Positions 13,474 to 51,483 of a DNA stretch of 64,000 nt are shown in pieces. Location: assembly GCA_040954595.2 (NCBI GenBank), contig CM082576.2:18027028-18091027 (forward strand). The letters run 5' to 3'. Numbering within the stretch: the first letter of the stretch is position 1; every line of letters starts with the position of its first letter. Both the position numbers and the translations under genes were made by a program. This DNA comes from Balanoglossus misakiensis. Lineage: Eukaryota; Animalia; Hemichordata. A model generated the notes under the pieces. The model ran no database searches and was not told where the DNA came from. It saw only the letters and a program-made list of their open reading frames with translations.

Positions 13474-13734
13474 TGTAGTAAATACCGGTTACTAACCTGG
13501 TAGGTACTACGGGTTGTCTTATTCCGGGCCACAGAGTTTTGCTTGGTACTGGTCGTCAGTCCTGGTAGCGTGTTGCTCTGCTGCTGGTCCGGGTCGTTCT
13601 CGTTCTGATAGTTGAGAAACGTGGGTAAAAACCAGTAGCACAGGTGCAGGGCATTCCGTAGTGCAATTACGTCAGAGGCGTCCCACCTGTACAGCAGGGC
13701 GCCACCAACGGCCAGAAGCCCACAAATTACTACA
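13474..13734 (-). repeat. 3' LTR (261 bp)
   Basis: Identical by eye to 40627-40887; TG...CA ends. Confidence 0.97.
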
Positions 13735-13755
13735 CTCTTCCCACTTTTCTTTTTT
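13735..13755 (-). other. Polypurine tract
   Basis: Minus strand AAAAAAGAAAAGTGGGAAGAG directly precedes the 3' LTR. Confidence 0.85.
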
Positions 13756-19600: not shown

Positions 19601-21058
19601 CGAGTTGGCGTCCAACTTGGAGAACCATAGACATCCTGATAGAGTGTCCATACACTCCTCCACCAATGGCAGCGGAAAAACGTCCTTTACGGTGATGTTG
19701 TTTAGGGCTCGATAATCCACACACCAACGCACGCTTGCATCTCGTTTTCGCACTAGAACTGGTGCCGAAGCCCATTCGGAGATTGATGGTCTTATAACTC
19801 CGGCATTCAGCATTTTCTTTAAGTGGGCTTCTTCTTCCCCTGCAAAACACATTGGAGTGCGCCGTAGACGTTGCTTTATTGGTGGATTGTCTTTTGTGTC
19901 GACGCTATGTGTGATTGCAGTGAAATTTCCCAGATCAAATTCGTCCTTGGCGAAAACATGACTGCAGGATCTTTCAAACAGATTTCCTAAATGTGAAGGT
20001 AGCCCGCCTACCGGCTGAGGGCGTACTTCAGTCCTCTGTTGGATGTCAGGTGATGGGACGGTGATCACCTCCACTTCTGTAGCTGATGCGATAGGATCCT
20101 TGCTCTTCAGAGTTATATAATTCTCCGTCGGGTTGACTAAACAAACCTTAGGTGATTGTTCCCCCGAGTGAAGTGTCCTGGGCATCATTACTTTCAATCC
20201 CTGGGTTGGTTCTACCAAATAGTCGGTTAGATCCGTATCGAGTAAACAGGATATTCTGACCACACTATTCGGTGGGATGATTGTCCGTCGCTTCAAAGTT
20301 ACCTTTGCCACTTTTGGTGAATGATCCCTCTGTCCAAGGGTCATAGGTATGTGTTCCTCCCCCAAATGGAGCCAGTTGTTACTCATGTTGATGGTTGCTC
20401 CATTTGCTTGTAGGAAATCAACTCCCAGTAGCATTTCGTCGCCTATTGGGGCTACGTATATATCGGCATTGAAGACGGCACGTCCCAGCTGGATGTCAAC
20501 GGGTCCGACCAGGTTGGCTTTCATGGTTAACTGTCTTCCAGCTGTTTGCATGGTAACTTCCCGCAATATTGGAGGTTTTACTCGCAGACTGTTGTACAGT
20601 TGGTCAGAGATAATAGTGACTTCTGCGGCGGTATCGATGATAGCGGTAGCGGACTGGTCTCCAATTTTTGCTGGGATGCTATACATTGAACTGGACACAA
20701 GTTGGTTAATGACAACCATAGGCATGTCATTAGCTTCGGATGTTGCCATACTGGTCTTTGACGATTTTGTCTCTTCCACTGTTGAGTTGGTCACATCTGC
20801 GCAATGTGTACCATCATCAGTTGGAGTTGGTATAGTCGTTGTATACACATCTGCACAATGTGTATTGACATCAAGTGTTACCGATTCAGCTGATGGCGAT
20901 GGCACGTCAATATTACAGTTGCGATCGCCCTCCGTGGAAGCGTTGAGGCCGTAGGTTATGGGTTGTTGGGTCAAACTTTGGCCTCTGGGCTTGACCCTTT
21001 GGTGTTTAATGGACTGGCCGGCGCTGTTTCCTTCTTTTCCGATGTTCCATGGGGACAT
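16667..21058 (-). CDS. pol: Pol polyprotein: aspartic protease, RT, RNase H, integrase, C-terminal PHD finger
   Basis: IIDTAAEVT (PR); VRWCVDYRALN, MPFGLCNAP, AFLDD (RT); LDTDAS, TDHHSL (RH); H-x6-H...CAIC, DFLGP, TDQGRNF, NGQAERQN (IN); YCLC...CDYCYEWFHGAC...CPNC (PHD). 1463 uninterrupted codons. Confidence 0.97.
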   Translation of the reverse strand: MSPWNIGKEGNSAGQSIKHQRVKPRGQSLTQQPITYGLNASTEGDRNCNIDVPSPSAESVTLDVNTHCADVYTTTIPTPTDDGTHCADVTNSTVEETKSSKTSMATSEANDMPMVVINQLVSSSMYSIPAKIGDQSATAIIDTAAEVTIISDQLYNSLRVKPPILREVTMQTAGRQLTMKANLVGPVDIQLGRAVFNADIYVAPIGDEMLLGVDFLQANGATINMSNNWLHLGEEHIPMTLGQRDHSPKVAKVTLKRRTIIPPNSVVRISCLLDTDLTDYLVEPTQGLKVMMPRTLHSGEQSPKVCLVNPTENYITLKSKDPIASATEVEVITVPSPDIQQRTEVRPQPVGGLPSHLGNLFERSCSHVFAKDEFDLGNFTAITHSVDTKDNPPIKQRLRRTPMCFAGEEEAHLKKMLNAGVIRPSISEWASAPVLVRKRDASVRWCVDYRALNNITVKDVFPLPLVEECMDTLSGCLWFSKLDANSAYWQISINPPECKKTAFTTKYGLYEFTRMPFGLCNAPATFSRVMNLVLRGLTWDIVLAFLDDIMVLGSSFEEHLKNLREVFKRLRKYQLKLKPRKCELFQQEVSFLGRKVGRNRISLEDQSIRMIQEWPIPINTKDVEKFAGFANYHRAFIKDYAKLAVPLYSVTGKKPFAWGYEQHQAFEDIKKALTAAPVLTLPNTKDNFILDTDASDFAIGAELSQIQNGKERTISYGSYALTPEQRRYCTTRKELLAVVRFTRQFRYYLLGNKFLVRTDHHSLLWLIRFKEPQGQLARWLEELSQYNFTVQHRPGKQHINADSLSRLPEQSACTNFEHGTKLESLPCGGCNYCSRAHRNWSPFIKEVDDVIPLTMAEPRNEHGNSQLHQTEGPYVVNQCTGIMNPRIQPAIQDEETWPWDPGGNLGLLTCCGITSDTVQDELIDVPHSNLEISHFPDPVQVCILSREDSTKLGTAILGYSHKEYQQAQQTDKTLGILITWLETGKVPEEGELRLSSPAAKNYWINRDLYFIEEGVLWRKSATDENTIQLVIPNTMKDEVIRLNHDIPSCGHQGIQRTQARIRTKYHWYRMSHDIRKYVTMCAICNHNKKAHRHHRHQLTLFHAGAAMERVHLDFLGPLPKTPRGNEYILVMVDQFTKWVECIPLPTQNAEETAHAAVAEFFTRFGYPFEIHTDQGRNFESQLFSAICEILHIHKTRTTSYRPSANGQAERQNRTLMNAIRCYIKSQKEWDKFLSQIAGALRSSVNRSTGFTPNRMMLGREINQPADLVFRPPRTNTDQSHEGYVYELKEAITNSHETAREILKTTQERMKRDYDLRVNKQSFKVGDPVYLLDTGTTKGKCRKLCPPWKGPGVIITKITPYLFRIKLRREVWTAHHDRLKLCQDKELPRWIVTFRKTLLKDSAGMGEVYCLCRKPDDGKLMIQCDYCYEWFHGACVNVTPTEIKKKALFSCPNCKPSEISAVSV

Positions 21059-22130
21059 TCCCTCTTAAAATGGCCTATCTCGCCGCACCCATAGCAACCA
21101 CGGCTTCTCGGAGATGGGGATCGGTACCTTGATGTCTGCTGCGTTGTCACCACTTTGGTTAATTCGGCCAGTTGGGTGGTGACAGTCTGCAAAGTTGCGC
21201 TGATTGCCGACATCTGCGTCTCCAGCCTCGACATCCTCCCCTGCATCTCAGTTCCTCCGTCTTTGCTTCTCGGGCGGATGGGAGCTCTTTCAGGAGAGGG
21301 TGATTGTTTTCGCTCGTACCTGGAGACAGATCGTGCTTCGATGTTGGCTTTCGGGTATTCCGGATCAGGACTTACAAATCGTACTTCCCGCCTCTGCGAT
21401 CGGATGCCATAGATTGCTTGATGATTATACTGGAATCTTTTGACAGTATCGATCGCTGCTTCGATGGAAGTTGGACGCTGATTTGCTGCCCATTGGCCTG
21501 CTTCTCGATCACAACATCCTTGGCAAAAGCGCATCACAGCTTGAAGCTCTATGGTGGCATCGCTGCTTTCTTGAAATGCCTGCATCGCAAGTGAATAAAC
21601 CCTGTCCGCCCATTCTTCTAATTTCTCCTCGGTGTTTTGTCGAATCTGGGCGAACTGAAGCTGACTGGATTCTGGAATCTCTTTCAAGCCGAATCGTTTC
21701 TCCAGTTTTTTGAGCAGCTCGTGATAGCTGACGTCTGCGTTTTTCTGGAGGATCCTGGTATAAACTTCACTTGCTTTCCCCTCTAAACACCAGCACAGAT
21801 AATTTTTGCATTCATTGAATGACATGTCCTGCATCTCGGCAAATTTCGTGAATTTTACCTGATATGCCTGCCAGTTTCCGGAGCCATCGTAGATTAGCGT
21901 CCTGGGAACTGACATTGGGATGTGACGATGACTTGATCTGTCCATCCGGTTATCATGCTGGTAGTAGGGTTGAGTTCTGGGAGGAGCGAATTCTGTTGGA
22001 TAATGGCCATCATAATAATCCGGTGATGCACCCGCTCGTGGTCTGGACACATTCACCCGTGATGGACGATAATTCTGCTCATCTTCAGGCCAGGTCGCAT
22101 ATCGCTGTTCATCGCGAACACTTCGTGGAT
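20971..22130 (-). CDS. gag: Gag, C-terminal part (capsid-like region and CCHC zinc knuckle)
   Basis: YDGSGNWQAY...LEGKASE...LEKRFG...QIRQ..EKLEEWA and CYGCGEIGHFKREC. The first residues of the listed ORF (MHKPGLSSCA) come from the CACTA end. Confidence 0.93.
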
Positions 22131-22998
22131 ATGCACAGGATGAAAGCCCAGGTTTATGCAATGCTTAAAGTTGGTATAAATATGATTAAAGCTGTTCTTG
22201 CAATCATCTTTATGCAGCATAAAGATATTCATTTATACATCTTTATGCAACTCTATAAATTGGTATAATGGCTTACCACAAATAATCACCTTTATGCACT
22301 CTCATAAGGGTGAATAATTCATGTACACCTTGCATCACATTTATGCATTCTAATAAAGGTGAATAAAAGGATGAATTTCTATACACCTAGCGTCACGTTT
22401 ATACAGCTTTATGTCAGAATGATCAGAATATTTGCTTTGGCTTCTGATTCTCATTTCTCCTTTTGGAATATTCACTTTATCCACAGTGAGTTTACGAATG
22501 TTGGGGGAATAAGTGTCATTAACAATGAAAGACTTATACCTCCTTTGTCCAGTACACTTATTGTTTCATGTATAACTAAAGGGTAGAATATATGTTAGTG
22601 ATAGTTCTTTTCTGTGGCCAGCTTTGTCTTCAGCCAATCTTTTCATTCCTGCACACGTACCAGTACACTCCACCACCGTCAAATAGATCACACATACACA
22701 AGCTATATATACATGCAGTGGGACATTGTCATGAATTCTATGATTTTTTATTACTATAAGTACTAGTAACTACTATTTACAATATAATGAAAAATTTATT
22801 AAACTAGAAAGTAAAAAAACTGAAAGAATAACCTTTACGAACTAAAATACGAACTTAAATAAAAATCACAAACACAAGTAAAAACAATTCTAAAGTAATT
22901 TCAAATGTCATTAAAAATGAAAAGTCAAGTAGAAATATTTAGTTAAAAATAGAAAAACAAAATAAATAAACACATTATAAAATGAAGTACAATATCAA

Positions 22999-25900
22999 TC
23001 AGTGGGGACTAGTACATCCCTCCTCCAGAGAACCTGTGGTTCCAGAAGAAGACGCAGAATCATCTGGACTTAACCCAGACGCAACCCTGACTGCCCAATC
23101 CTCTGGGTAGTCAGGCCGCTCCCTGGAAGAGGGGGGTCCATCTGACCTGGGAAGGCGAAGCTGGCGCTGCTTTGCCGATAGATGTCCATTAACTGTTTTT
23201 TGCTTTTACGCAACTTTTTCCTTTCCCAGGTCAGAGGACGTCTTATGTATTGCTTGATCTTCCCCTCATCATCAAAATCGCTCTCTTCCGAGGAGATATA
23301 CTCAGCTGTTAGTACGCGTTTAATTTTCTCCTTGTCCTCTTCAGGCCAGTCAACCGATGTCAGGGAGGACTGAAGCTGTTTGAGTTTCTGAAAATGAACA
23401 ACATAGGATTTGTCAATAAAAAATCAACGTAGAGCTCATATTTAACAAGATCCTATTGCCATCATTGGATTTGTAATTGTTTATATATAAAAAATCTCTA
23501 ACAAAAAAGACAAGAATATTACTCAACGAACCCAATTGTTACATTAACAGATGGAACTTTCGCAGTCACCTAACTGGTACATACAACAGTATTAGACATA
23601 AATTTGAAGCTACTCACCTCTCTTTTACGCCCCTGTCGACGGCATGTTTGTTTGTGGGCCTCTGTCTTTCCTTGGCTGTTCAACCGATGTTTGTTCTTTT
23701 GCCCCCGAAAAAATGTTCTGATTGCTTCTGTAATAGGAATTAACAGAAAATTAGCAAGCAGCCTAAGTTGTTTTTACTTTTGTATGTGTCATGTTAGCAT
23801 CTCCTTAAAGCTTCAACTTTAGAAGGAATGTGAGCATATTATAAGTAAATATGTCCAGCTCAAGTAAGTAGAGGACTTTCCTTTGATCCAACCATGGCGG
23901 TACTAAGAGTGCCTCCATGATCCAACGCAAAGGGTTGTGATTTTGCAATATTAATTAAAAGTATCAGATATTTAATGTTATATCATAATCAAAATCCATT
24001 TACCTTTGGCCTCGAGTGTGTTGATGTCATCACATCTTAACTCCTGCAGCAAGATTTCACATGATTGCTGGTTCTCCACAGCATCAAATCTATAAAAAAG
24101 AGAGAAATTTCATGAACCATTTAATTATTTTTTGTCAAGTTATCCTAGGCTAAACAGATGAAGTATGTGGCTTCTAGAATTCTGGCCCCAACATGTTCCA
24201 GCCTTGGTCGATGCGGCCTCTCTTTTCAATGACCCACATCAATGTGGCCCCTAAACCCAAGTTTCAGTGTCCTATCACTATATAGTGTTGTGTCATTTCA
24301 GCCCCCTGACGGATGCAGGTATAATTATATAGATTTATTGTATCTTAAATAAGTAAACTTAATTCTTGTGTCAAAAAAACTATTGTATGGGGCATGCAAA
24401 GTCATCAGCACAATTCAAAGATAAAAACATAATCCACTGGCTTCTGTGATGGAAAAATGATCAATTTAATTTAACAGGAACATTTTATTACTAACATATC
24501 ATTGTGTAGTTGTGAATAGAAAGAATGGCATTACACGTATAAGTTATCAAATTCACGCTGAATGGGAAGGCAATTTTGGACCGTGAGAAATTTCATTCTT
24601 ACAACTTGGAATGTATATCTTTAAATTGATGAAGACCTTTACAACTGAAAACTTGAATAACATACATGTAGGGATAAACTGTGTTTACGCCATCTTGAAA
24701 ATTTGCAGTGCATTATGGGTCAATTGAGTTCCGGTTGAGGGGGAGTAGCGTCTACAACCTTACCTATCCAATTTTCCAGCGGTTTAGTCAGATTTTCTTC
24801 AAGTAACGTTAGTAGTAGTAGTTACTTGAAGAAAATCTGACCAAACCGCAGGAAAAAATGGATAGGTTGTAGGCGCTACTCCCCCTCAACCGGAACTCAA
24901 GTGACCCATAATGCACTGCAAATTTTCAAGATGGCGTAAACACAGTTTATCCCTATACAAAAGGTCCACCTGTACTTCACAACATTAAAAATAGAGAAGA
25001 AATGTAAATACCTCTCAGTGACATTAAGACCAGGAAAGTCATCCCTCTGCCTCAGTAAGTTGTACTTTGCACGGACTGTTCTCTGGGGTGAAAATATAAA
25101 GTACTATGTTAGTAAAATTGTTAAATCATTTTTATTTAAAACATTCTGACAGTTCATTTGTTTGCTTCAATCACCCTATCAATCAACATTTATGGCATAG
25201 ATTAGCCTGGTCACCATACCCAGTGTGTTGTAGATAGACTCACACACATCGAAAACACGCTGGGTATGGTGACCAGGCTAGGCATAGATAGGCCTAAGTG
25301 CATATTTCTTGAAATGTATCTTTTGCACAGCACTGGCCACTATCAAAATTTGCATTGTAAAGGTTACTAAAACAAGCATTTATGCAACATGTGGTTCCGC
25401 ACAAAAAGGTCAAAATGTTATGCATATTTTAGAAATTAACCACAAAAATACTGAAAAAGTAGCCCAAGTGTCACACTGGGTAAAATTAAACACCTGACAT
25501 TGTATGTGTCCACCTGACACCTGGCCCCAAACAGATAGGTTGGAGGTGTTAATCCTTAGTTACACAAGCTCAGGTCTGGCCTGAAAAAAGCGTCTCAAAT
25601 CTGAAGCATTTCATTCACACATATTTATTCCCTGTGTGACCACCATATAATTAAAGCTTGTACCCCATTATAACCAATGGTCACAACAAGAGACACTGAC
25701 GCACAGATTGTTAAACAATGCTATTGTAATGCTATTGTTTGGTAGCTTTGTCAGGAATGTGTAGCATTAATGACATATGCAAATTCAAACTGTGATACTA
25801 GTATTGACCTCTGACATTTATCAGGTGACGACTGAGTATTTCAGTGTTCAATTTATAAGTTCTCCTAAAATCTTTCAAACATAAGAGCCCTTCCACACCG

Positions 25901-26549
25901 AGTCGCAAAATGTACGCGATGTTAAAAAGAAATGTACGCGACGGCCGTGTCAGGCTACCCCTATTTGACGACCTCAGGAAGCTTAATTATGCGTACCAAC
26001 AAGCGTCACGCTTTATGTGCTTGCGAAGCTTCAGTCCCCCGGTCCGTAGCTGGAAATAGCAGGTGCGTGTCTCGGTAAAGACCTACACACACAGGCACGC
26101 GAAAAGATCGCTTCGTGATCGGTCGCGAAATACGCGAGAGCCAAAAATTTCCTGTCACGAAAATAACCTGTTTTACAGTACCTTATTATTATACCACGTA
26201 CTGATCACCTTCCATTGAGACCCACCATAAAGCTACAACCACAGACCTCCATGCTAATACCGAGGTCTGCTCCGATCGGCTTATGGCCCCGTAGGACAAC
26301 TTCAGGTTGCCCGTGTGTCCCATTGCATTAATGTTAAACAACGGACGATTAACTATGGTGCGAGAGTTGTATTTAAAAAGAAAGAATCATACTCACAGAC
26401 ACGATGTTGCTAACATGTATCTTGGATTTTCTGCGGGCTGCTGATGTTGCGTGAAGCGCTGAGAGTTTTTCTTCTATTACCTTTAGGGACATCTGCATTG
26501 CCGGTACTTGTTGAGCCGCGGAGCAACCACAAAACGTATTTTCATTCAT
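22999..26549 (-). CDS. Spliced second gene of the CACTA element (5 exons; acidic SSEESD / RPLTWE type, resembling C14orf93-like proteins); frameshift in the last exon
   Basis: GT-AG exons ~26549-26397, ~25082-25012, ~24089-24005, ~23727-23618 and 23387-22999 join in phase: MQMSLKVIEEKL...RTVRAKY...AIRTFFRGQK...EYISSEESD...RRPLTWERKKL; GPPSSR...DWAV follows in a shifted frame. Confidence 0.65.
24669..24955. mobile_element. ~287-bp near-perfect palindromic (foldback) MITE in an intron
   Basis: tagggataaactgtgtttacgccatcttgaaaatttgcag... mirrors ...ctgcaaattttcaagatggcgtaaacacagtttatcccta. Confidence 0.85.
25203..25280. mobile_element. 78-bp MITE with 21-bp TIRs and a 9-bp TSD
   Basis: TAGCCTGGTCACCATACCCAG...CTGGGTATGGTGACCAGGCTA, flanked by GGCATAGAT on both sides (25194-25202, 25281-25289). 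Confidence 0.85.
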
Positions 26550-28170
26550 AGTTGAAGACGATGCAAAGAACTTCTGAGTTTGTTGTAATAAACGACATGG
26601 TATTTATACTGCTGAGGAAAGGTTGACTTTTCAAAATTCCCGCAAAAGTCAAAGGCAGCAACTTTGATTGGTTGTAAGAATATCCCCGAACTAATAACCA
26701 ATCAACGTTAAATTCACAATCACGTGTCTCAAGGATTCCGTGCCTGTACAATAAACTTGATAAACATCCGGTGTTTTTAATGTCAACATGCGTCGATCAG
26801 ACGCTACAGGACGCTTCTGAAAGACGCTACGAACATCATACTGTGCTTCACTGACTGTGCTTCGAGGTTTCTCACTCCTGAGTCCAATGATCGAAACGCA
26901 AACGTGGCTCAAGGTACGTATCCTTGTTAAATTGTTGATATTTGTCTGGAGGAGTGGGCATCATTATCTTTGGACCCGGGCCGGGCGCAGTAGGCGTACG
27001 ATCGCGTGAGACGCACGCGGAGCCGCGACTGATGTAGCCGATGTAAAACAAAACTAAACCCCTGTCCGTTTACCTTTTAGCTTTAAATTTGATAAGTTCT
27101 TGCCGCGGATCAAAGACTAGATATCGCAAAGCTTTGATTAGGTGGTTGTCGGTAAATATTTATTGATAGTAAGTGGCAAAATCGCCATCCGAACATATGT
27201 TTAACAATCGCATTCTGCCCTTTCCGCTTCGTTAGGGGTGGACCACTTGATTTCAGAGGGTGAAGACAAAATTGTCGAAAGTTTTTTTTTTTTAGCCGGG
27301 AAAAAAAATGTTCGTGCGGGCTAAGTAAAAAACAAACAAGTATGATTCCGACAAAGCTTTGAAAAACCTGGTTGAACAATACCAAAAAATTAAATGCTCA
27401 ACAGTCGCCATTTGGGAAATAATTCCTCCAGCTCCCATGAATCAAATGGTCTACCCCTTACAAACCTTTCTACTATATACTGCGGTTGCATCAGTCGGGG
27501 TTTCGAGTTCCAACTAAGCATGATTTTGATAGCCTCGGTCATGTGTGAGGCTTGTATGACACACATGATTAATTATAATATAATTTAAGGCAGCTAGTAA
27601 GTATATATGTCCAAAGATAGAGTCTAAATGTAGATACAGTGTATATGTACTCTGGAATGATCAACGTGTTAGGGTGTGTAAACTATGTGCATACGAGAGA
27701 CAATGCTGCATGGTTGAGTCAGACTGGAGTAGCAATGGCAGAATGCTCAGCTGCTTTTACTTGTACTTGCTGATGTAGCTTTACAGGAAAGCAATATATA
27801 TACTAGCACGTGGATATTGTGGTCTCAAATATGTGTCAACCAAGCAATTTTCCTCTTCAAATTTTACATAAGGATCATGATAATTAGAAAGAGTTGGCAA
27901 CAATAAGTAGAACATGTCTAACATTTTCTGAAGTTGTGTTTTGATAATTCAGTTGAATATCATACCAGTTGGTCGCATACTGAAATTAAATGTACAATGA
28001 CTTTTAACATTAACGTTTTTATTACTTCTGTTTCAACAGCAACTGCAATATTACAGCAAACCAGTTTCCTGTATCTGTCACCTGCACTTGGATTTTGACA
28101 GTAGCTTTATGTTTGCTTTTGAATGCCTCATATTCACCCTTGAGTGATTTACTCCCAAGACATTCATGAA

Positions 28171-31100
28171 ATGGTAAGTTTCAATGCTTATATGTATCGT
28201 TGTTACACAATATAGTTCAAAGCATATAATAAATGTTGCTATACGGTGCTTGAAAGATAGAATTTATGCATACTTGCCAAATTTCATTGTAAAACCAGAA
28301 GCGATGCAAAATAGGGTTTCATGCGTAGGTAGTGATTTTCCAAGAAGTCCAGTTATCAATTTGGTTCTACAAAGTTTGAAAATTTATGGCTGTGATTGTA
28401 AAGAAATTGGTATCAAGTCCAATTTGCACAATGTTTTGAAAAATTAATGACAACTTTTCTTTTATTTATAGGATTTTCAAACACCAAAGAGAGGTCGTGT
28501 GTGTCCAGTGTGTCATGAGACCTTCAGTACAAGAAACTTTTTGAGACATAAAAGAACATATTTCAATTATCAATCCTGTTCCTGGGAGGTACATATACAT
28601 GAAAAAAGATCATCAAAATCCAGACGGAAAATTACAATGATTCATACAAAGAACCCACTGGATACTGAAAGCTCTGATGATAATGGTAATTTAACTGCAA
28701 CATTTATTTAGTTCTGACATTGCCCAATTTCAGTTGCCTACTTTTTCTGCCAGTGGTCTCCTAACATTGTATGCCAGCACCATTTTGTCACATGGTGCGT
28801 AGATGTAGAATATGTTGCTGTGTAGTTTTTTTGTTTTAGTGTGATTTCAAAAACATGCAAATATAGTGTACACCCTCTTCGGGGGGGGGGGGGTCACTGT
28901 AAAGTGTATAGTTCGCTTGCATCTATCGGTGTGACCATATGTGTGTTGGAGTTGAACTGGTCCAAGCAGAATTCTTGCTGGCATCTAGTTTTCTTATCAA
29001 CTATTTAAAAAAATATTGTTAGTGTCATGCTCTGGTTATTTTGTGATGTTTTTTCATTTCTGAAATGTGTTGTGTAACAACAACATGTACGTGTTTGTTC
29101 TTTCCAGGATGTGGTATCCCAGATGCTGAACCTTTTATGATGTCACCAGGCTCTCCTTTGGAATCAGCTTTTAGGTGTCATCTGATAAAGAAGGCACAGG
29201 CCAGTACTCCTAATATATCCACTGCATCAAGTGAGAATGTCACTGAAGACGGAGGGTTGTTGAATAAGGATGACTCGGACTGGGATTTGCAGGTAATTAC
29301 TCAATCCATCCCATGAATTTAGACTATGTACACTGTCAACACAGTTGGTGTTATGGTACTGTTACTGGTTTGGTGGCAAGCAAGACATTACATACTTTAA
29401 AACAGGAATTTTTTACGAATGATACATTTTTGCAAACTACGCAACAGTCAAAATAAACGCGACAACAAACTGTCGTGTAAAATGTTTTTCTGAGATAATC
29501 ATGCAGTGAATTATGAGAACATAACAGTTGTCTCTTGATATCGCCGGAAAATTTCACGTTTTTACAGTATTACAAAGAGAATGCCATAAGGCAAAATAGT
29601 ATTGTTTAACAATGACATATTTTACCTGGCAATTTGAAGCAACTTACAAGATTTTATTTGGTATATCAAGCCACATTGAAAAATGTCTCTTTGACTTTGT
29701 AAGAATATCTGACTGGTTGGTTGTCTATGCCAAACCATGATGACATTGTAAACTTGGTGATTAAAATTAAATCTGCCAAACCATGATGACATTGTAAACT
29801 TGGTGATTAAAATTAAATCTATTATATATCTTTCCCTTTTTCATAGTGGTCTGGCTCTGATAGTGACATCTCAGGAGAGGAGTCAGCGTTCAGCGATACT
29901 GAAGATGGTATAAGTGGTAGGGCAAGTCAAGTCCAGGAAGCTGCAATTTCATCTAGTGATAGTGAAGACGATGATGGTGGGGTAATTTGGGAAGAGGAAA
30001 ACGAAGAAGAATTTCTACAAGATTTGGGTCAACCTTTATTGGTTCAAAGACACAGGTCCAAAATAGCTAAAGTAAATGAGTTGGTTTCATGGATTCTTTA
30101 TTTTCTGTTGTATTGGCAAGCCAGCTGTCATGTCAGTGATAATTGTTTGTCATGGCTTTTACAGTTTCTGTCAACTGTTTTTAACATCATTGGGGTAACT
30201 GTGCATAATGAATATATAACTGAACTTGCTGTGTGTTTACCAGCATCTCTGTATATGCTTCGTCAGTGTGTGAACCTTGACAGGGATGATTTCCTTAAGA
30301 AAGCTGTTTGTCCAAATCCTAGATGTGCTACATTGCATGATATTGATAACCTTGCTGTTAGACAGAATGGCAGATTCTTTGCCAAATGTTGTGACAAGAA
30401 GAGATTTAAGAATGGGAAACAAGTAAAGTGTGGACAGCCACTTGCAAAGCATGTGATTTTAAATGGGACTGTTAGATTCTATCCAATGAAAGTGTTCTCA
30501 TATGTCAGTCTTATTGACTCAATAGAAAGTATCTTGCTTCGTGCAGACATACCTGCTAAACTAGAAGAATGGAGAGAGAAACATACAGAACAAACAGACT
30601 GTGAAGGTAACAAAATATATACAGATATTTATGATGGCAACATATGGAAAGAATTTCAAACTTATGATGGTGAAGATTTTCTAGCAAAAGAATGGAATTT
30701 AGCATTATCAATGAATGTTGATTGGTTTCAACCCTTCAAAAACAGAAATGATTACTCTGTTGGTGTGATATATTTTGTGATACTAAATATGCCACGGGTA
30801 ATCCGCTTTAAGTTTGAAAACGTTATAGTTGCTGGAATCCTACCTCCTCTTGATAAAGAACCATTCAGTTTGAATTCTTTTCTCCAGCCTTTTGTCAGTG
30901 AATTACAGAAACTTTGGAAAGGTTTGAATTTAGGAACCAGTTCATCAAGTGTCCCTGTCAAAGTAAGAGCAGCTCTACTTTCTGTTGTGTCAGATATACC
31001 TGCTGCCAGAAAAATAGGTGGTTTCAAGTCTCATGCAGCCAGTGTTGGTTGTTCAAAGTGTTATAAAGTATTTCCTGGTGGCTTTGGAGAAAAGAAGGAC

Positions 31101-32540
31101 TACTCTGGCTTTGACAGGGATAACTGGCCAAAGAGAACAAAGGCAAAGCATAATAAATATGCCCATGATGTAAATAATTGTAAAACTGTCAAAGAATCTA
31201 ACAGGCTTTCTCAGAAGTATGGGACATATTACTCTGTTCTTGTTGAGCTACCATACTTTGATTGTGTTAAGATGATTTCAATTGATCCAATGCATAACTT
31301 ATTTCTTGGGATTGGTAAAAAGATGTTCAAGGTATATCTAGATATGTTCTTATCACCCAAAAAACTTAGTGTTCTTCAAAATAGAATACAGTCCATGACA
31401 GTAGCATGTGACATTGGTAGGATACCCAATAAAATTGCTTCAAATTATGGGAAATTTTCTGCTGATGAATGGAAGTATTGGATTACTGTTTTTTCCATGT
31501 ACTGCTTGAATGGGCTTATTCCTGAGAATCACTTATTATGTTGGGAACGGTTTGTTTTAGCCTGTAAAATATTATGCAAGCCATACCTGTGTGAAGCTGA
31601 TATCAGAAAAGCTGACATCTTGTTATTGAACTTTTGCATTAAGTGTGAGACGCTGTATAGTAAGAAAATGATTACTCCAAACATGCACCTTGTGTGTCAT
31701 CTGAGAGAGTGTTTATTTGACTATGGACCCATTAGTGCATTTTGGTGCTTCCCTTTTGAGAGATATAATGGGTATTTTGGGGATATTCCCACTAATAACA
31801 GGTCAGTAGAAATACAGTTTATGAGGAAAATTACAGTACTGAGGTTTGTACAAAACAAAGAAATGAAGAATGGTCTTTCTGGGATATTCTCAAATCTGAT
31901 TGAAAGACCAGGATCAAAACAAGATGTATGCAAGGCGAGCAATTTCTTTCTTCTGAGTGCTCCTGATGCAAAATTAATGGAAAACATTAACTGGGGATGT
32001 AATGAATCTGTATATGTCCCAAATGCGTATGTTGAAGGAGCCCTTTCTGTTGAGGATACAAACCTAATTAAAGCTGTATACGAGTATATGTATCCAAATA
32101 AAGTTGCAAGCTGTATTAGTAAACTTGTAAAAAAATATGCATATGTATATATCTTTGGAGAGAGATTTGGGTCTAAAATGGCATGCAGAATGTTAAGAAG
32201 TGCAAGAGTTATGGCTAAATGGGCAGGTAACACTGGGGACTTTGATATTTCTCCATGTAATCTTCGACCTTGTCAGGTTGATTGGTATTTTAGTCACTCT
32301 GTTGAGATAGATGGCAAGAGACTTGTACACAACTTTGCAATGGTAAGATGGTATAAGCCACATGAAAACAAGGACAAATTTGGTAATTGTGTTGAAGTCT
32401 GGCAACAGAAGACATTTGAACCATATGGGAAGTGTAGCTTTTTGCCAATACATCGTATTTCTTGCCGCTTTGCCTGTACTGATTTGAAAGATAATAGCCA
32501 AGTTGTCAGTGCAATCAACCGCAGAGTTGTTGCATATTAA
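28171..32540 (+). CDS. CACTA/EnSpm-type transposase, spliced (exons ~28171-28173, 28472-28685, 29108-29292, 29847-32540)
   Basis: DIYDGNIW, LSMNVDWFQPF, DIPAARKIGGF, CSKC, IDPMHNLFLG, PNMHLVCHL, GPISAFWCFPFERYNG. Upstream exons have canonical GT/AG sites and stay in phase, encoding CPVC...H and an acidic tract. Confidence 0.9.
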
Positions 32541-35500
32541 TATAAGAGAGAAAGAAACCTATGTCATGCTCCCCTGTAATTTTCAGTGTTAAGTATGATG
32601 CATCTTGTATATTTTTCATAGTTGTACATTTTACTTGAATATTCATATCTGAAATAAATTTATTACTTTCATGAATGAATTACTTGTCTCCAGTAACTTT
32701 GTTACCCACATAAACTAGTGTGTATGTGTGTGTGTTTTGCTTAAGGGTCAAATTAAGAAGTACATGTATACAGTTTCATGAAACAAAGCAGACATAAGCT
32801 TTTTCTGCTATGCATGGTAAAGGCCTCAGCCCCAGGGGACAAAATGATTCTGCCCACAGACTGAACAGTTTATTGGAAAACAACAATGTGTTAATAATCT
32901 ATCATTATTTGACCTGGCTGTGTAACGCAGCTATGGGGGTGGTGCTCTGCTGGTTTCCCCACCAGTAGCTGTGATCCATATATCATAACGAAATTGGGTC
33001 ATTTTAATACTGCGACCAATCTTTAATAGGGAGGACGTTTAAACGGCAAAGGGAAACAAAACGAGCGTAATTCAGGCGATTTTCCAAGGAGTTTTCAAGA
33101 TTCAAATACAAGCAGCAAACTTTGACCTTCACTCTGATCTGATTCATTGTCTTTGTGCAAAGACTCTAATTAGCATATCAATGGAAGTCATTCACTGCTT
33201 GGGAATCTTGAGTACACAATGGAAAAATCATAAAGATTGAAGGCCGTGTCAGACATGCTGGTTAAAACCGCGTTTTATGATGTGGTTGGCAGTTGTATCA
33301 CTACTAAGCTAATATCGCATTTACAGAACTAAAATTGAACTGATCACACACATCGATAGCGCCAAACAAGGGGTGTATAATGATTGCATAAAATGAGTTA
33401 AATTGTCGATTTCGCCCGTGCAGTGTGAACAAATTGCGCGTAGTGCAGTCAGTAGATTCGCAATCCAGTTGCTGTCATGTAGGGCATAATTGAGAAGACG
33501 GTGCGGCCGGCACTGTTCGCTAGCACATGTCATTAGCTCGACTACAGTCTGAGTTCGGTTCGGAGAGCATCTACTTCTCGACTGGATATTAAAGAAATTT
33601 TGGCAGTCAATTATATGCTGCAGGGTGCTTTTACATTCAGATGTACAGCGCAACATGGGTTACAATTTCGTGTTCAAACACCGGTAGCAAGAGGTCAGAA
33701 TTTGACTCTGGCAGCTCTTCAATTACATTCGCATTCACTCAATAACAATTTCTGGGTGAGACGTAAGTCTCTCCCCAGTCCGTGCCCCTTCAAGATTTTG
33801 AGAGGGTGTACATACAAGTTACATGGAAGTATCAGACTCTCTCACATCCCCTCTCGCCGCCTATAACTATACGCAGGGTTGTGGGAGAGTCTGTCCGCGG
33901 AAGCGGTCGTGGGGGTGGTGGTTACCGTTAGGCCGTAAACGAAAACATGAAAACTGTTTGAGATTCAATGTTTCTGGTCTTTTATACTGATGTGATCAGA
34001 AATAAGAAGAGAAACCATACTTGTCGCTTCAGTTTGGAGTATATTATTTGAAATGATGAAAAACGCGCAGGGACGAACGCACGTCTTTGGAAACTTAGGC
34101 AGTGATCTAAGAGAAATAGTATAGAGAGGCGTGCAGTTTCTCAGACACGCAGTTTTATCTGAATTGCGTGTAGTGCGGCACAGCGCTGTAGAAGTCATAA
34201 AACTGCCGCAACATCGAAGTAAGCCGCTTCGTGGGAGCTACATCGCGGGCAATAATGTCAGTTGAAGTCGGTTTGGACTTATGACTTCGCTGAATATTTT
34301 AAGCGCCGAACCACGATAGATTTCTTGCCTGTCATAACTCATCGGTGCCGATACCAACTAGGCCAAATCTGATTTTTTCTCTTCTAAAGACTTCGTAACA
34401 CATGCCGAGCTATGTTTTCGCCCCAAGTGTCGCGCTCTGTTCATTGTCAGTATCGGGTACGTTTCAGTGATTCATTGAGTTTCAAGAACTTTGAATTCAC
34501 TGATAATAAATTACCGGACTCATCTACATGTAAATGTCTACAGTTCGAGTCAACTGCTCGCTTATGTTGACATCAGTAGTTTCGTCTACCGTGACAGCCT
34601 TATTTATTGAGTACAAATTCAAGTCTACATTTCTTTAATCGATTTATTCTCGAGGACCGATGTCAGGATTCATAGATTTTTTATCGACTTGTCGCCGCAA
34701 TACTCGTTCACACAGGTTCCCGAGAACCGACTACGGCCCCCAGACTCCGGTTCTCCGGGAAACTGTCTTTCATTGATAAACCGAGTTGCGTCAGTACCGG
34801 TAATTCACTGGCTCAAAATTCGTGGTATGGGGAATTATTCGCTTGTTGGCTATTAAAAAATAAAAGTCTCTGAAAGCCGGTGAGATCGTGTCTGTCTGTA
34901 CTACTTCGGCAATGAAACTCGGCAATATTCTGCTTGTTAAGGTCTAGGGCCTACCAGTTCACGTTTCATAGCGTCTTGATGTGCTGCACTCTCTGCCTGC
35001 GCACTTTGATGGTGTCTTGTCTCAGTCACTTGCACGACGTCTTGTTTTATACGATCGTTTATTGAATTTCTGGCAGAATTTACAGTTCATAACGTCACCA
35101 GGACGGTAATACAACCAACGTTCACGGTCAGTTTACCACTAGAACGAAACATAAGTTTTCGGCGGTTACGGGGCCTTCCCGTGTTTTTCACTAAGTGTGC
35201 GAAACGATTTATCATAACTCCCTGAATCGGCAAGATTTCTGTTGCGTCAAGAGAAAAGGTTCTGCTACATTTTTACTTAATTCTAACATTTCGCGTGCAT
35301 GATTAAGAGAACGCGCAGCAATCGATGCGTCCTTTGATGCTGTATGTGCCGCGGTCGGTGCAAAGATTTCTACGCTACAATCAAATTATCATTCTCTGTC
35401 GAACAATGAAAATCCAAACTCAAATGGCCAGCGCTGATGACTGATATAATTCGATGTCATTTTAATTGTGACATTTTATAATTGGCGATACGACTAAATA

Positions 35501-38500
35501 TTATGTTGCACAAGACCTTGTATTCCATTGCCGCGAGCAGAGACATACATATAGCATCAGTTGCTGTCGTAAGCGTTCGTGGACTCGGAGGAATATCCTG
35601 TTTAACCTAATAATATTAATCAACACAATTAGTGTAATTCTGATCAGAGCGGTCATAGGCTATCACCTATCACGCTCAAGTCGAAACGGAGCTCGCGAAT
35701 GTAGGCAGGAAAACACAGACTAGTCTCGAACGCGTAATTACGGCCATTTCCGAATTCAAGTCAACGAAATTCAGGTGTTGTAACTAATACTGTAACGCTC
35801 TACAGTCATTGGAAATGAACTTCTAGTAGAATTAACAGGATTTCTATTTGCACTCGAAGCGAAAGTTTCCCTTGCTCGGTTGAAACGAAAGTCTGCAACC
35901 TTGATCCTTCGATTGTAAGAAGCATCAGATTATTGGCACGATCGTCGTCCAGTCGATTACATCGTGCTGTGTGTGCACGGTGTGTTGTCGACTGAATTCC
36001 CCGTTAACAGGGCAGGGGAGAAACAGGAATCACTAGAGCCATGCTAGTAATTGGAACACAGAGAACAGCTCTCCGTAATATTATATTTTAATATGACGGG
36101 GTTCGCTAGATACTCAGTTTCATTTGAGTAAACGCAAATCGGCACGCCATTTGCCGATTTAGGCCTATATATCACCGCGACGAGTCGAGTCTCTTTTTCT
36201 AATAATAGCTGTGTTTCACGTGATCGCTGACTGGACCACCGGCTCCGTCGAATGTTAATATTTCAACAGGCTGAGCATAATTGAGCGTACTATCTGTTGT
36301 AATTTTGGTTGGAGCGGCAATGAACGAAATGCGATTTCGCTGACAAAATACTGGCCCCAGTATTTAGAAATAACGATTAGAACGCTTCTACGCGAAAAAT
36401 TTCGAGATATTCTCGTCGGAAAAACACGCTTTCGGGGATGGGCTTAATTTCAATTGGATTTTGTTTCTACAATTGGTCAGTAGGCCTATTATGCCAGAGT
36501 TATAGCCATGTTTCAAGACATTCTTTGCTGGTCTATCGATGCTGTCCTGATCAGCAACACAGGCACGCACCACAGGCCAATACTTTTTATTTGTTCGAAC
36601 TACTATAGTTCATGAACGTTTGGGGGGGGGGGGGGGTTATGTAGTTGGAAGGCATCCAGTGCAGCGCTCATTGCCAGCCCACACAAATTAAGAGCGCCGC
36701 ATCCGAAACGTAGGCTGTTGTTTCGTATGGGCTGTGCTAGGCCTAGTAGGGATGTAATTTATATCATCAGCCTTCCTTTTACATGTAGGTACATTGATAA
36801 TCACTGCAGTGGCAACGCGCGTTCAGCGCGTCCACACTTGATTTTATCGGGCTTTACATTACGATTACAGGGATCAGCATCGCATACGTACAAATAAAGA
36901 TACATGTAACCGATGTTCTTGGTGAGACAATAGTTGGACGTCATTTTAGACATGCCTGTGTTGTGCATGTGTAATTCTGAGAAGCTCGTTCTCCACAGAC
37001 ATCATTTCGACTCATACAGGGGTCTCGGTGTTAAAAACCTCGAATGTTTGTCTGGAGGGCAAGAACATAAACACACGTTTGACATGTTAATCGGTGCAAC
37101 AGTGGTGGGAACGTTTTCCGTGTGTTTGCACATCAATGTTTATACAAACGCTAAGTTTTACCATTAACCTATGTGCTGTGCAGATCAAAGGACGCCCGCA
37201 CCTTGCAACAAGATACACACACGGTCCTTCTTCACCGCCCCCAGGCAATTTAGACCAACCGAGTCTAAAACCTGGGAAATGTGTTAAAAACGTGCGATAG
37301 ATGCGTTTACGGAATAAACATTACGAAGAGAAGTGCATGTGACTAATGCAAACTAGACGGTTTTTAGATACAACTTTCTTTTACACATGTATGTTTTCTA
37401 TTTATTATTGTTCCGAAGATTCAAGGGGCATACGTTTTCAAGTCCCTTCTCGCTCTCTTCGCTGGAAGAAACATTTTAAACCCAATGCATTACGGGTTAT
37501 TGTGCATTCCTAAAACATACTATAAGTATTGAGTATACTAAGAGTTTTGATGACTACTCTTGTCTGATTTGTAAATATACAGCTCTCCCCAGGCCCAAAC
37601 AGCGTCGGGGGCCCCGACGCTATCACTAATGGCCCAGCTTTCCCCCGACGCATTTATGTCTGCCCGCTATGCCGAACGTGTCACTGTCAACTCCCGTATT
37701 TTTGCCTTATGTCCGCTTTTGTTTTCACCATAACTTGCTGCTTCCTTTCAATTCTTGATGAATAGTGAACACAACTGAGTCATTTCACATCTTTCAGGGC
37801 GTCAATCATGGCTTTAATCACCCTAGAAGCAATATTTGCTGGTTTTGTATCTCTGTATACTTTTCTAGTTTTTATTTTGTCTGTTGTTGGAACCATAGAC
37901 GCATGTTGGAACCGTAATTGGCCAGTTTTGCGCTGTTGGTCACACGTTATTCATGAAAGGATGAGCTTGAAAACAATGTCATTCATGAGGTCACTTCCAC
38001 TATTAGACGCATGTATGCATTATAAGGTCAATAAGCATATAAACATTGTATCATATTGTTCTAACAAATGTTACAGCGCTTAGCGCCATAAATAGGGTTC
38101 CAACCACTGCGTGGTCGGATTTTTTTCATCTAGGAGGCTGAGTGGCATTGCGCGAGTGTCCCGAGATATATGGAGCGCCGCACACGCGACTGTACCTTGT
38201 TGCCTACCGTACTTTGAAATCATATGCCAATGTGTTGTTTATTCGCATAAAAATCATGTCAATGTAATGAAGAGATATTTATTTGTGATTTTTATAACAA
38301 CGGCGTTTTACAAACGCTACAGAGAAGGTTCAAATGATCATTATCGCAACCTGTACTGCGCCTCCACCTGCCACAATCACACACTGATATGCTAATAACC
38401 GATCGTCTGACATATATGACATATACCATAGTCATGACATGATGTTCAAAGCCAGTGGGACCTAGTCGGCCCAATGACATTCGTTCTGGCATGCACTTCA

Positions 38501-38934
38501 AATGTCGATGACATATAGCAAAGCAAAACGGTTAAATTAGGCTATTGTTTCAATTGTATGACTGTCAAAGATCGAATGAGGTGGTGGTATTTTAATAAGA
38601 AAAAGTAGCTAGGCCACCAGTACCGCAAAGTAGCCGACCAGGTTGCCGATGGCTGGCGCTTCCTGAAAACTGTGGCCGTCTTTATAACGTGCATAAATGT
38701 GTATATATTCGTTGAGTCATTTAACCATCTTTATACTTTGCATAAAGGTGCATATAATCGGTAAGCCATTATACTCATTTACGCAACCAATTAAAGGAGA
38801 TAGCAAGATAAACACTGTTGACCAACTTCACACCTCTTTAAGCGGTTGCATAAAGGGGCTTGTAAAAGAAGACCAACTTTATGCAGTATTATGCAATTGC
38901 ATAAAATGAGTTAAAATGCCTATTTCGTGCTGTG

Positions 38935-39448
38935 ATGGTCTACCATACGCAGGAGCATCTGGCCTGTACGCAGGATGGAATGAACTATCATACCCCCGAG
39001 AGTCGGTATGATGTTGACTTACCCTATCCTGCGTATAGTCTGGTTCGTCAAATCGCCTCGATCGAATAGGTGCTTTGGGTTGTTGATGTCGTGAAGGTCG
39101 TTGAACATGTCTGCTTTCGCGTTCTTTCGTGACCTTGTCAATCCTTTCCATCCATTCCTTCATGCTATCTTCATCACTATCCTTCCCGCTGTCTTCCTCA
39201 TCTTCCCAGAACGGGGCGAGATGGGTAGTTGTGTTCATGGATGGTTTGGCTGAAGCACCTGGTGGGTCGAAGTCGGCCATCTCCGTGAATTCTTCGGATG
39301 GTTTGAACCTAGGAATACTGCATACCATCTCATATGTTACATAGCCATGTCGTTCACGTAATCGCAGAATCGCCTTGGCTATTTTCCGTCCCACTCCAGG
39401 TAGACATTGAAGAGTTCCTAGAGTACTGGTGTTGACGTTGATTTTCAT
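38935..39448 (-). CDS. gag: Gag, N-terminal part with a ComEA-like helix-hairpin-helix domain
   Basis: MKINVNTSTLGTLQCLPGVGRKIAKAILRLRERHG matches the ComEA/HHH_3 pattern. Joins 22130 in frame after CACTA removal (AYGRP-YPRSVRDE; 557 aa total). Confidence 0.88.
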
Positions 39449-40613
39449 GATGGCGCGTTAGAAATTATTGAGATGGAAGTTGCAGATACCGTTGTCGGAA
39501 AATATTACCCACACAAGGACAGAGTAATATTTAACAAAGTGATATTACTCGTAATAATTACTGAGCAATACCCAAATTGATCAGTTTGTCACAAGAATAA
39601 TCAATGACAATGACCAATCAATTATATCACAACAATAATAGAACCCGCAATTATACAGAGTAATATAATGTGATAATAAGTACGACTGATATCAATAATA
39701 CAGTAATTGGAATGGCTCACAATAATAAAACTCGCAATAATACTGAGTAATACAATGCGACACCAAATATTATTGATATAGCGAATAATTGAACAGTTTC
39801 AACACTTACCAATTGCTGAGGAATTACAGTTCTGTACTGATACTGTGTGGTACAACTAGTAAAAATGCGAAACAAAGCGGAATTTGTTAAAGCGAAACTT
39901 TTCAGAAGTAAAACAACAAATAAAAGACAAGTCCGAAAGCTGGAACTTGTCCGCACAAAAAGTACGTAAAATTATGACGAAAGGTGCGGTGTACAGAACT
40001 GCCACAAAAAATGGCTTCTTTGACGAAATGGCTTCCTCGTCAATGCAATGGTGGCACCAATACTAGCAGAAAGTTACTTTCCAAGCTATCCGTACACACA
40101 CAACGGCAGTATAACGGGCTAGGAAGTATAACTGCAAATCTTACCTTGCCGTGTTCGGAAGTTCGCCGTACACACAAAAAATACGGTAAGACAAAGTACA
40201 CGTAAAACAACACAGAAATAAGTTGTGAAACTTTTCCTTGAAACGTGCACAGAAAAAAAAACGGCACAGTGTAGCGGAAAATTCCTCTCACTGAATTTCT
40301 TGAACTTGGCCCCAGCTGTCCGAACTTCAATAAATATTACAAGCTTTACCGGAACAACTGGAGATTCGTTCCCAGTTTTCTCTCGACTTCCACTAGTTCT
40401 CTGTCTCCCACCAGAAAAACTAATGAAGACGGTTTCTTGGTGCAAGTGTTGAAAACTGAAAGCACTTGGGCGTCCGCACTACTCCTATAAGTTTCAAGCG
40501 GAAAGCCGCGACGCAACTTTAACGATAGCGAGTACTCCGACTACTTATCCTCAAAAATTGGCAAAAAGTTACCAACGGAGTTTTTTCACCTTTTCTCCAC
40601 TAGGGTTGAAAAG

Positions 40614-40624
40614 TCGCAGCGCCA
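40614..40624 (-). other. Primer-binding site (TGGCGCTGCGA, tRNA-Ser-like)
   Basis: TGG start 2 nt inside the 5' LTR boundary. The tRNA identity is inferred. Confidence 0.6.
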
Positions 40625-40626
40625 AT

Positions 40627-40887
40627 TGTAGTAAATACCGGTTACTAACCTGGTAGGTACTACGGGTTGTCTTATTCCGGGCCACAGAGTTTTGCTTGGT
40701 ACTGGTCGTCAGTCCTGGTAGCGTGTTGCTCTGCTGCTGGTCCGGGTCGTTCTCGTTCTGATAGTTGAGAAACGTGGGTAAAAACCAGTAGCACAGGTGC
40801 AGGGCATTCCGTAGTGCAATTACGTCAGAGGCGTCCCACCTGTACAGCAGGGCGCCACCAACGGCCAGAAGCCCACAAATTACTACA
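40627..40887 (-). repeat. 5' LTR (261 bp)
   Basis: Direct repeat of 13474-13734. Confidence 0.97.
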
Positions 40888-42410
40888 GCAGCATAACTCC
40901 AATGATCTTATTTGCACCGCAGCGGTGCAAATAAGAGTTCCCTGCACCGCAGCGGTGCGAATAAGAGTTCCCTCCCCAACAACGATCTGACCGTTCTTTA
41001 TTCACTCCTCGGCGACAAAAACGTTTTATTACGGCCTAAATAATGACTTTTTCGCTCCTTGGTTGGTCATGCGGACGGAAAGACACGGTTTTAGCGAGTT
41101 TATCTTTCACTCTGCTGAGCACTCCGTATTCAGACTTACGCAAGTGAACCGCGACAAAAAATGGCCCAGTTTCCCTGCATGTTACTTATACCCGATAGAT
41201 GAAAAAAGCAGCGTAGATATTGAAATGAATTGGATTTATGAAATTGTTAAAATTACAATTATAATGTCGTTAAAAGTTCTCACAAAAAATAGAAATAGTA
41301 AAAAAGTGGTCTCGAACCAACATCAGTTGACATCCTCAGGTAAAAGCTTTCCTGAAACTTTCGCCATCACGATGTGTACTCGAAAAAGTCGGAAATTTTC
41401 CGCACTATATTGCAGCATAACTCCAATGATCTTATTTGCACCGCAGCTGTGCAAATACGAGTTCCCTGCACCGTAGCGGTGCGAATAAGAGTTCCCTGGC
41501 CCCGCAACGATCTGACCGTTCTTTATTTACTCCTCGGCGACATAAAACGTTTTATTACGGCTTAAATAACGACTTTTTCGCTCCTTGGTTGGTCATTCGG
41601 ACGGAAAGACAGGGTTTTAGCGAGTTTATCTTCTCTCTGCTGAGCACTCCGTTATTCAGACTTGCCCAAGTGAACCGCGACAAAAAATGGCCAAGTTTCT
41701 CTGCATGTTTGTTATACCAGACAGATAAAAAACGCAGCGTAGATATTGAAATTAATTGGATTTATGAAAATGATAAAAATTACAATTAAAATGTCGTTAA
41801 AAGTTCTCACAAAAAAGAAATAGAAAAATAAAGTGGTCTCGAACCAACATCAGTCGACACCTTCGGGTAAAAGGCTAGCCTTCCTGAACCTTTCGCCATC
41901 ATGATGTGTACTCGAAAAAGTCGGACATTTTTCGCTCTATATTGCAGCATAACTCCAATGATCTTATTTGCACCGCAGCAAATAAGAGTTCCCTGCATCG
42001 CAGCGGTGCGAATAAGATTTCCCTCCCCAACAACGATCTGACCGTTCTGTATTCACTCCTCGGCGACAAAAACGTTTTATTACGGCCTAAATAACGACTT
42101 TTTCGCTCCTTGGTTGGTCTTGCGGACGGAAAGACACGGTTTAGCGAGTTTATCTTTCTCTCTGATGAGCACTACGTATTCAGACTTGCCCAAGTGAACC
42201 GCGACAAAAAAATGGCCAAGTTTCACTGCATGTTTGTTATACCAGACAGATAAAAAACGCAGCGTAGATATTGAAATGAATTGGATTTATGAAAATGGAA
42301 AAAAATTACAATGAAAACGTCGTTAAAAGTTCTCACAAAAAAGAAATAGAAAAATAAAGTGGTCTCGAACCAACATCAGTCGACTCCTTCGGGTAAAAGG
42401 CTAGCCTTCC
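40888..42410. repeat. Continuation of the ~530-bp tandem array (~3 units)
   Basis: Resumes exactly at gcagcataactccaatg after the LTR and ends abruptly at the LINE 3' end. Confidence 0.96.
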
Positions 42411-51117: not shown

Positions 51118-51483
51118 TTTTAAAGACTGGTGTTTTCGTCTGTACAATCCATTCTTGTACAATATTCTCTTTAAATTTCACAAGCTCAGAATAAAATCGT
51201 GATATTTGTTTTCAAAGCCAACATTACACAATAGTTGAAACCCATGTTGAAATATAAAGGAACTATTACCCACTATTCAAAACATAGTGATGAAATGCTC
51301 GAGACTCAGATCTGGAAAGCCTTTAGTCTGAAATTTAGCAGTGACTTTCTGGTGACATTGAATGTGATGTACATAATAATTAAACTTTCTGGCCACGTAA
51401 CCTCCCGCGTTGATCAGTTAAGCTTTTGACTCCTTAGGTTCATTGCAATAAGATGCGATATAATTTCGTGACCACGAGATAAT

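Follow-up and report, generated by a model that had tools for sequence, protein, structure and literature searches.

To our knowledge, how the particles of LTR retrotransposons reach chromosomes and stay on them is known for few elements. Accessory domains of Gag are usually directed at membranes or RNA. Foamy virus Gag has a chromatin-binding site, p12 of MLV binds nucleosomes as a short, unfolded peptide, and BAF, a host-encoded dimer that bridges DNA, binds retroviral DNA via a helix-hairpin-helix (HhH) motif. In MLV, p12 is a part of Gag N-terminal to the capsid and tethers incoming complexes to chromosomes (PMC3531515, available part). According to the accessible text of PMC10945824, PNMA proteins carry an RRM-like domain at the N-terminus, and in the PNMA2 capsid the first ordered capsid residue lies outside, with N-terminal domains forming outer spikes. 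The N-terminal arm of the Ty3 capsid points outward (PMC6525542, available part). For ComEA, the accessible portions of PMC9747964 and PMC3879209 report that one lysine (K166 in Gs, K164 in Bs, K63 in Vc) is needed for DNA binding, that loss of either hairpin motif removes DNA binding by V. cholerae ComEA, that bulky residues at a hairpin glycine (equivalent to G20 below) abolish DNA uptake, and that an arginine (R31 below) is judged structural.

Here we describe a Ty3/Gypsy LTR retrotransposon of the hemichordate Balanoglossus misakiensis whose Gag almost certainly starts with a ComEA-like HhH domain. It lies on the minus strand of the window (the 64,000 nt of contig CM082576.2 analysed as one stretch), running from 40887 to 13474, and contains gag, pol and ORF3 (Table 1). 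Its assignment to Ty3/Gypsy (Metaviridae) is based on direct TG...CA LTRs with a target duplication in the 4–6 bp range (here 4 bp), on the typical pol order (protease 130-219, RT 438-596, RNase H 660-788, integrase 1033-1204; Pfam), and on a Gag with the two-lobed PNMA/Arc/Ty3 capsid fold and a CCHC knuckle (Pfam; model of the relative P0013). The -1 overlap of gag and pol is likewise shared with Ty3/Gypsy elements, whereas the N-terminal HhH of Gag, the PHD finger of integrase and the TatD domain of ORF3 set the element apart. To judge from its identical 261-nt LTRs and the 4-bp duplication, the element is young. Assignment to the Troyka elements or Kuafuorterviruses was rejected: TG...CA ends, a 4-bp duplication and an FLDD motif are found here, versus CG...CG, a 3-bp duplication and IADD/VADD/LADD in those groups (available parts of PMC12440569 and PMC11673190).

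Other repeats surround the element. It sits in a tandem array of ~530/440-bp units with 31-nt palindromes (5972-13473 and 40888-42411), upstream of a Helitron Rep with an OTU protease (909-5478, minus strand). In 43129-50570, what is left of a second LTR element (gag, protease, RT, RNase H, integrase) is interleaved with the remnants of a non-LTR RT. A further element at 56136-60446 and 51421-51856 has inverted repeats of 424 nt that are 99% complementary, along with a tandem repeat of 21 nt.

Table 1 Coordinates of the LTR element and of the transposon inserted in its gag (window positions)
Feature	Position	Strand	Evidence or remark
5' LTR	40627..40887	-	261 nt, TG...CA, 100% identical to 13474-13734
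3' LTR	13474..13734	-	261 nt, identical to 5' LTR
4-bp target-site duplication	40888..40891	.	second copy 13470-13473
Primer-binding-site-like TGG stretch	40607..40624	-	2 nt inside 5' LTR; sequence
Leader, ATG-free	39449..40626	-	1,178 nt between 5' LTR and gag start
Gag residues 1-62, ComEA-like HhH domain	39263..39448	-	Pfam HHH_3, AF2, structural search
First stretch of Gag linker, rich in P/S/R/D, ending at break	38935..39262	-	composition
CACTA/EnSpm-type DNA transposon in gag	22134..38934	.	CACAG...CTGTG ends, 3-nt duplicated target, subterminal repeats
Transposase_21 (Tnp2) ORF of insert	29847..32540	+	897 aa stop to stop; Pfam PF02992 E 5.3e-15
Remainder of gag: linker, PNMA-like capsid, coiled coil, CCHC knuckle (21049-21102)	20971..22130	-	Pfam PNMA, Retrotrans_gag, zf-CCHC
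pol, -1 frame: protease, RT (FLDD), RNase H, integrase, C-terminal PHD finger	16667..21064	-	
PHD finger, integrase C-terminus	16700-16834	-	within pol ORF
ORF3, 924 aa from first Met, TatD nuclease domain at end	13857..16631	-	
Polypurine tract	13735..13755	-	sequence; precedes 3' LTR

The HhH ORF (39448-38935, minus strand) opens with an ATG at 39448 and reads into foreign sequence at 38934, the end of a 16.8-kb insert that separates it from the downstream part of gag. That a nested transposon splits gag is in itself ordinary; the window's copy would be unable to produce full Gag from unspliced message. The initial annotation had called the insert a CACTA element. Its type holds, given a Tnp2-type transposase, a 3-bp duplication and subterminal repeats (an 8-nt motif with five copies per terminal 300 nt versus three in the 16,201 nt between), but the termini are not the CACTA/CACTG pentamer. 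Both sides read CACAG in a short imperfect inverted repeat, which we regard as a variant terminus of the CACTA/EnSpm type. Among the CAC[AT][AG] candidates in 22000-22300 and 38700-39100, 22134/38934 was the sole end pair with a duplicated target. In public contigs of the same organism, the right end at 38934 joins other flanking sequence in each of the two runs described below; this confirms the boundary and indicates that the DNA transposon is mobile and also present elsewhere. The window's own insert-gag junction (38934/38935) was absent from the listed contigs of the public runs, and the case for this particular insertion is made by the window sequence and the target duplication. The contigs also skip ~3.3 kb within the CACTA element (26148-29476), probably a further nested insertion.

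Removal of the insert joins the two parts of gag (514 + 1160 nt) in frame, as had been proposed; lengths and codon phases on both sides are correct. Copies crossing the insertion site uninterrupted, which the initial annotation had looked to as a check, were found in one contig each of two of the three public runs from the same organism (all from one sample and one study). Depth was 344.5 for one of these contigs and 1616.8 for the other, which extends 196 and 101 nt to the two sides of the site and has no other letter. The insert interior had depths of ~100-120 and 220-600; the roughly three- to fourfold higher depth of the uninterrupted contigs suggests several such copies, depth being no copy number. 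The 1,178-nt leader contains no ATG on the element strand, where 17.4 are expected (none of 2000 simulations lacked ATG; the opposite strand has 14), so that past the primer site no start codon precedes the ATG of the HhH ORF. Such a leader is not general, since the upstream ATG counts in four relative loci were 0, 1, 8 and 8. The claim that this isolated ORF is the true N-terminus of Gag is thus borne out by uninterrupted copies, natural relatives and the ATG-free leader, and neither of the outcomes named beforehand as speaking against it (a gag starting downstream of the HhH; an HhH fold that is not predicted) occurred.

The ComEA-like nature of the domain, likewise put forward from the sequence, agrees with profile and structure comparisons. 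Pfam HHH_3 matched the ORF with 33.3 bits (E 5.4e-8, cut-off 27), while the NCBIfam ComEA cut-offs were missed (29.9 vs 53.1 bits). AlphaFold2 modelled residues 1-65 with a pLDDT of 95.6. Foldseek returned nothing at E ≤ 0.001 for this model, its top match being ComEA 8dss (E 0.016, TM 0.72). In a wide structural search, 8dss was again best (Z 9.6, rmsd 1.7 Å over 61 residues), followed by Tex (8.3), a Thermus ComEA-like protein (7.8), and TEFM, GspK, KIF22 and PsbU (5.1-5.4). Residues 1-61 are accordingly predicted to adopt the same fold as ComEA's DNA-binding domain. The model of the full-length relative P0013 comprises the HhH at 1-60 (pLDDT 93-97), a low-confidence linker (mostly <50), the capsid at ~190-356, a coiled helix and then the knuckle. 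Its capsid matched PNMA2 best (E 6.8e-6), and also Arc and Ty3. A two-copy complex prediction for the HhH domain scored 0.00 with the alignment unused, which is evidence neither way.

To assess how widely Gag carries this domain, we used a query consisting of the capsid only (the downstream part of gag), which returned 75 proteins and a set therefore unbiased toward the HhH. The capsid start could be aligned in 58 of them, and the other 17 were dropped. By a profile made from 18 of the capsid-query proteins and the window domain, the HhH was present in 21 of the 30 relatives with at least 150 residues ahead of the capsid and in none of the 28 shorter ones. Of 44 proteins from this query scanned with Pfam alone, a selection made mostly by length, 20 matched HHH_3 (E ≤ 0.05). 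A further profile search, against 1.84 billion representatives, yielded 727 proteins at E ≤ 1e-30, the best 150 of which were listed. Altogether, 236 proteins were examined and the HhH was found in 110, a set biased toward it because the search profile contained the HhH; every one of these 110 carries the capsid as well, with one HhH each that is nearly always N-terminal. In this set, relatives with a long N-terminus carried it in 101 of 123 cases; some of the remaining 22 are degenerate, some are truncated gene calls, and four form a distant outgroup. Named relatives come from Mytilus, Mya, Pinctada and Lytechinus.

The domain order in these relatives is HhH, long variable linker (median 192 residues, range 37-661, n = 109), capsid, coiled coil and CCHC. 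HhH identity exceeded linker identity in all 30 nearest pairs, with means of 0.48 (HhH), 0.25 (linker) and 0.67 (capsid). Distances between HhH domains correlated with those between capsids (Spearman 0.32, n = 89; highest of 999 permutations 0.13). In a capsid tree (FastTree; rows with at least 150 upstream residues and <40 gaps), consulted solely for how the HhH is distributed, rows lacking it were scattered among those bearing it and four distant outgroup rows lacked it, which fits a single gain at the base followed by losses or truncated gene calls. Judged by these comparisons, the HhH is a lineage-wide trait of Gag. Within one diverged, frameshifted contig family, variant sites over the N-terminal part numbered 7 in the HhH and 22 in the linker, too few for a selection test.

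The pol proteins of the window and of three relative loci (L003, L009, L011) are 51-55% identical to one another, pointing to an old lineage with more than one family. Two of 11 DNA loci were long enough for three ORFs (L003, L011), and both combine an HhH-Gag, a PHD-pol and a TatD-ORF3; L009 has the HhH-Gag and PHD-pol, after which the locus ends. A scan of viral_contigs gave seven pattern matches, none of them confirmed. Several relatives (loci L008, L009, L010 and L011; proteins P0003, P0008 and P0063) are animal retrotransposons inside bacterial genome bins, titled Sedimenticola, SUP05 and Ca. Thiodiazotropha, most likely through host contamination. P0003 and loci L008-L011 are filed as a bacterial 'helix-hairpin-helix domain-containing protein' in symbiont genome bins.

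The PHD finger was present in all four pol ORFs examined, in L011 by motif. Its Tyr, Met and Trp positions are presumably those of the methyl-lysine cage type. At the gag-pol overlap, six of seven elements (the window element, L003, L004, L008, L009 and L010 being those named) have TTAAAC and four of seven have TTTAAAC (window ~21003-21010, minus strand), a likely -1 frameshift site, which would explain the conserved Leu-Asn near the end of Gag. The sole domain match in ORF3 is TatD (Pfam E 6.3e-36). Its metal-binding motifs (HxH, Glu, two His, Asp) are kept in all three ORF3s aligned (window 13857-16631, minus strand; L003 6627-9347; L011 6876-9671), as is a conserved Cys/His-rich middle domain. 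No env features were found in the window's ORF3 (highest 19-residue hydropathy 1.38); with TatD as its only match and no features of a membrane fusion glycoprotein, we rejected an Errantivirus-like, env-bearing element. Just ahead of the ORF3 ATG, a pyrimidine tract and CAG (~16632-16660, minus strand) likely form a splice acceptor for a subgenomic message. A nuclease in a third ORF instead of env is shared with the bdelloid LTR elements Juno and Vesta, whose ORF3 encodes a DEDDy exonuclease and not TatD (PMC5408684, available part); 'TatD' and 'helix' have no occurrences in that paper's searched text.

We then compared 94 non-redundant HhH domains (<80% identity, ≤15 gaps; 16 of the 110 were dropped) with ComEA (PF12836; 8dss, 8dfk, 2duy). 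Their mean identity is only 33%. Shared with ComEA are the predicted fold, the first GhG hairpin and a conserved Arg 11 residues later, and with Gram-positive ComEA also the tethering of the HhH, by a flexible linker, to a domain that oligomerises. Retention of the first hairpin shows in G18 (74/94), G20 (83/94) and G-[VIL]-G (64/94), with K/R at position 21 or 22 in 61/94 and at 22 in 47/94. Apart from its fusion to a retrotransposon capsid, the Gag domain differs from ComEA in two respects. The position of K166 is Ile23 in the aligned window domain and K/R in only 3/94, and the second GhG hairpin is gone (GxG in 0/94), so that the ComEA-type hairpin pair assumed in the initial annotation did not hold. 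K/R at 47-49 occurs in 80/94, and these basic residues may substitute for the second hairpin. The median net charge is 0, with positive values in 31/94. The most invariant residues, N6, I27, R31 (93/94), G35 and F60, look structural. By alignment, both ComEA-like domains of EEPD1 also lack the lysine at the K166 position, hence its absence from the Gag HhH is not decisive. In summary, the Gag HhH is, as modelled, ComEA-like in fold and in one hairpin, yet not a ComEA. The residue evidence is mixed and makes DNA binding plausible, not a given.

For the role of the domain, we favour, with about even confidence, weak binding to host DNA, driven by avidity, through which particles or pre-integration complexes would be docked on chromatin. 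In PNMA2 and Ty3, the closest capsids with solved structures, the N-termini point outward, and the HhH would accordingly be displayed outside the shell on its long tether, away from the cDNA made inside; this outward topology is deduced from relatives at 13% identity. Such a position would favour tethering to host DNA over coating of cDNA, both of which the initial annotation had considered. With one GhG hairpin intact and basic residues close to the second turn, affinity per copy would be low, and the many copies per particle would make it useful. The grip would be independent of sequence, leaving the PHD finger of integrase to pick the site. Docking would resemble that by p12 in MLV, an analogy of role for a pre-capsid part of Gag with no homology; the HhH differs as a predicted folded domain of a DNA-backbone-binding class. 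The chromatin-binding site of foamy virus Gag offers an analogous proposed role in chromosome tethering.

Three other readings were weighed against this one. The strongest of them, which we nevertheless hold to be unlikely, is that the HhH is partly disarmed and contacts protein or RNA, binding a host factor, a protein of the element or its own RNA in packaging. The loss of the ComEA key lysine and second GhG hairpin, the neutral charge, and the strongest conservation falling on core residues would agree with this, as would further fold neighbours such as Tex, TEFM, Spt6, GspK and PsbU; we know of no DNA binding by PsbU or GspK, which have the same fold. Set against it are the retention of the exposed first hairpin and of G20 across such divergent domains, the loss of DNA uptake by ComEA with a bulky residue at that glycine (available parts of PMC9747964/PMC3879209), and the EEPD1 domains, which do without the lysine.

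Somewhat less probable is that the HhH binds the element's own cDNA in the manner of BAF, so as to compact it or prevent autointegration, once protease has released the domain or the particle has uncoated. BAF itself is the proposed analogy, in that its HhH binds DNA without specificity during the life cycle of a retroelement; the element has a protease of its own, and the long linker could let a released or dangling HhH reach DNA after uncoating. However, the HhH is predicted to face outward during reverse transcription, the CCHC knuckle already serves the particle interior, and a conserved cleavage site was not identified. BAF was absent among the 50 fold matches listed, which is not an exclusion, and no sequence match to it was found among those listed; the BAF-like bridging of DNA by Gag that had been suggested at the outset is without direct support. 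Finally, that the ORF is an orphan gene of its own or comes from an assembly artefact, with gag starting downstream, is highly improbable: the separation of the parts in the window copy, Met codons ahead of the capsid in the downstream part, the missing window junction and a weak search of longer proteins with the N-terminal part only, in which none of 201 candidates passed, could be cited for it, and it is refuted by the uninterrupted copies and the relatives (both domains together in 110 natural proteins), along with the exact transposon ends with their target duplication and the ATG-free leader.

The combination of HhH-Gag, PHD-integrase and TatD-ORF3 was not described in the full-text literature searched, a scope outside which subscription journals and Repbase lie. 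By term search, the HhH is not mentioned in PMC12440569, PMC8321522 or PMC10294476, and 'helix' is absent from PMC6238403 and PMC8556966; the RT motif of the element had no matches in the supplements searched of the latter two (each available in part). The available part of PMC11673190 does not mention the HhH-Gag layout. A 'helix-hairpin-helix' in a paper on the Cer1 CERV element (PMC10309623, accessible text) was discarded, being by description the leucine-zipper region of another protein. The lineage thus appears large and undescribed, and supplements or Repbase entries may already list it. In the ESM Atlas, a full-length relative as query gave only leads below 0.9. One arthropod cluster there combines SAP with Retrotrans_gag (SAP in 73% and gag in 59% of 81 members); this is a lead only, and may represent a separate acquisition by Gag of a domain of DNA-binding type.

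Taken together, we tentatively propose, at somewhat less than even confidence, a Gypsy lineage of marine animals, old, widespread and undescribed, that is equipped for work on host chromatin with an HhH grip on each capsid subunit, an H3K4-methyl-reading PHD finger on integrase and a TatD nuclease as ORF3. The HhH-Gag would then tie in with the PHD-integrase and TatD ORF3 of the same elements. If the docking role is correct, this would be the first retroelement Gag to contain a folded domain of its own that binds dsDNA and so docks the particle on chromosomes. A compact N-terminal HhH in at least 94 distinct Gag sequences provides a small, testable handle on how particles meet chromosomes.
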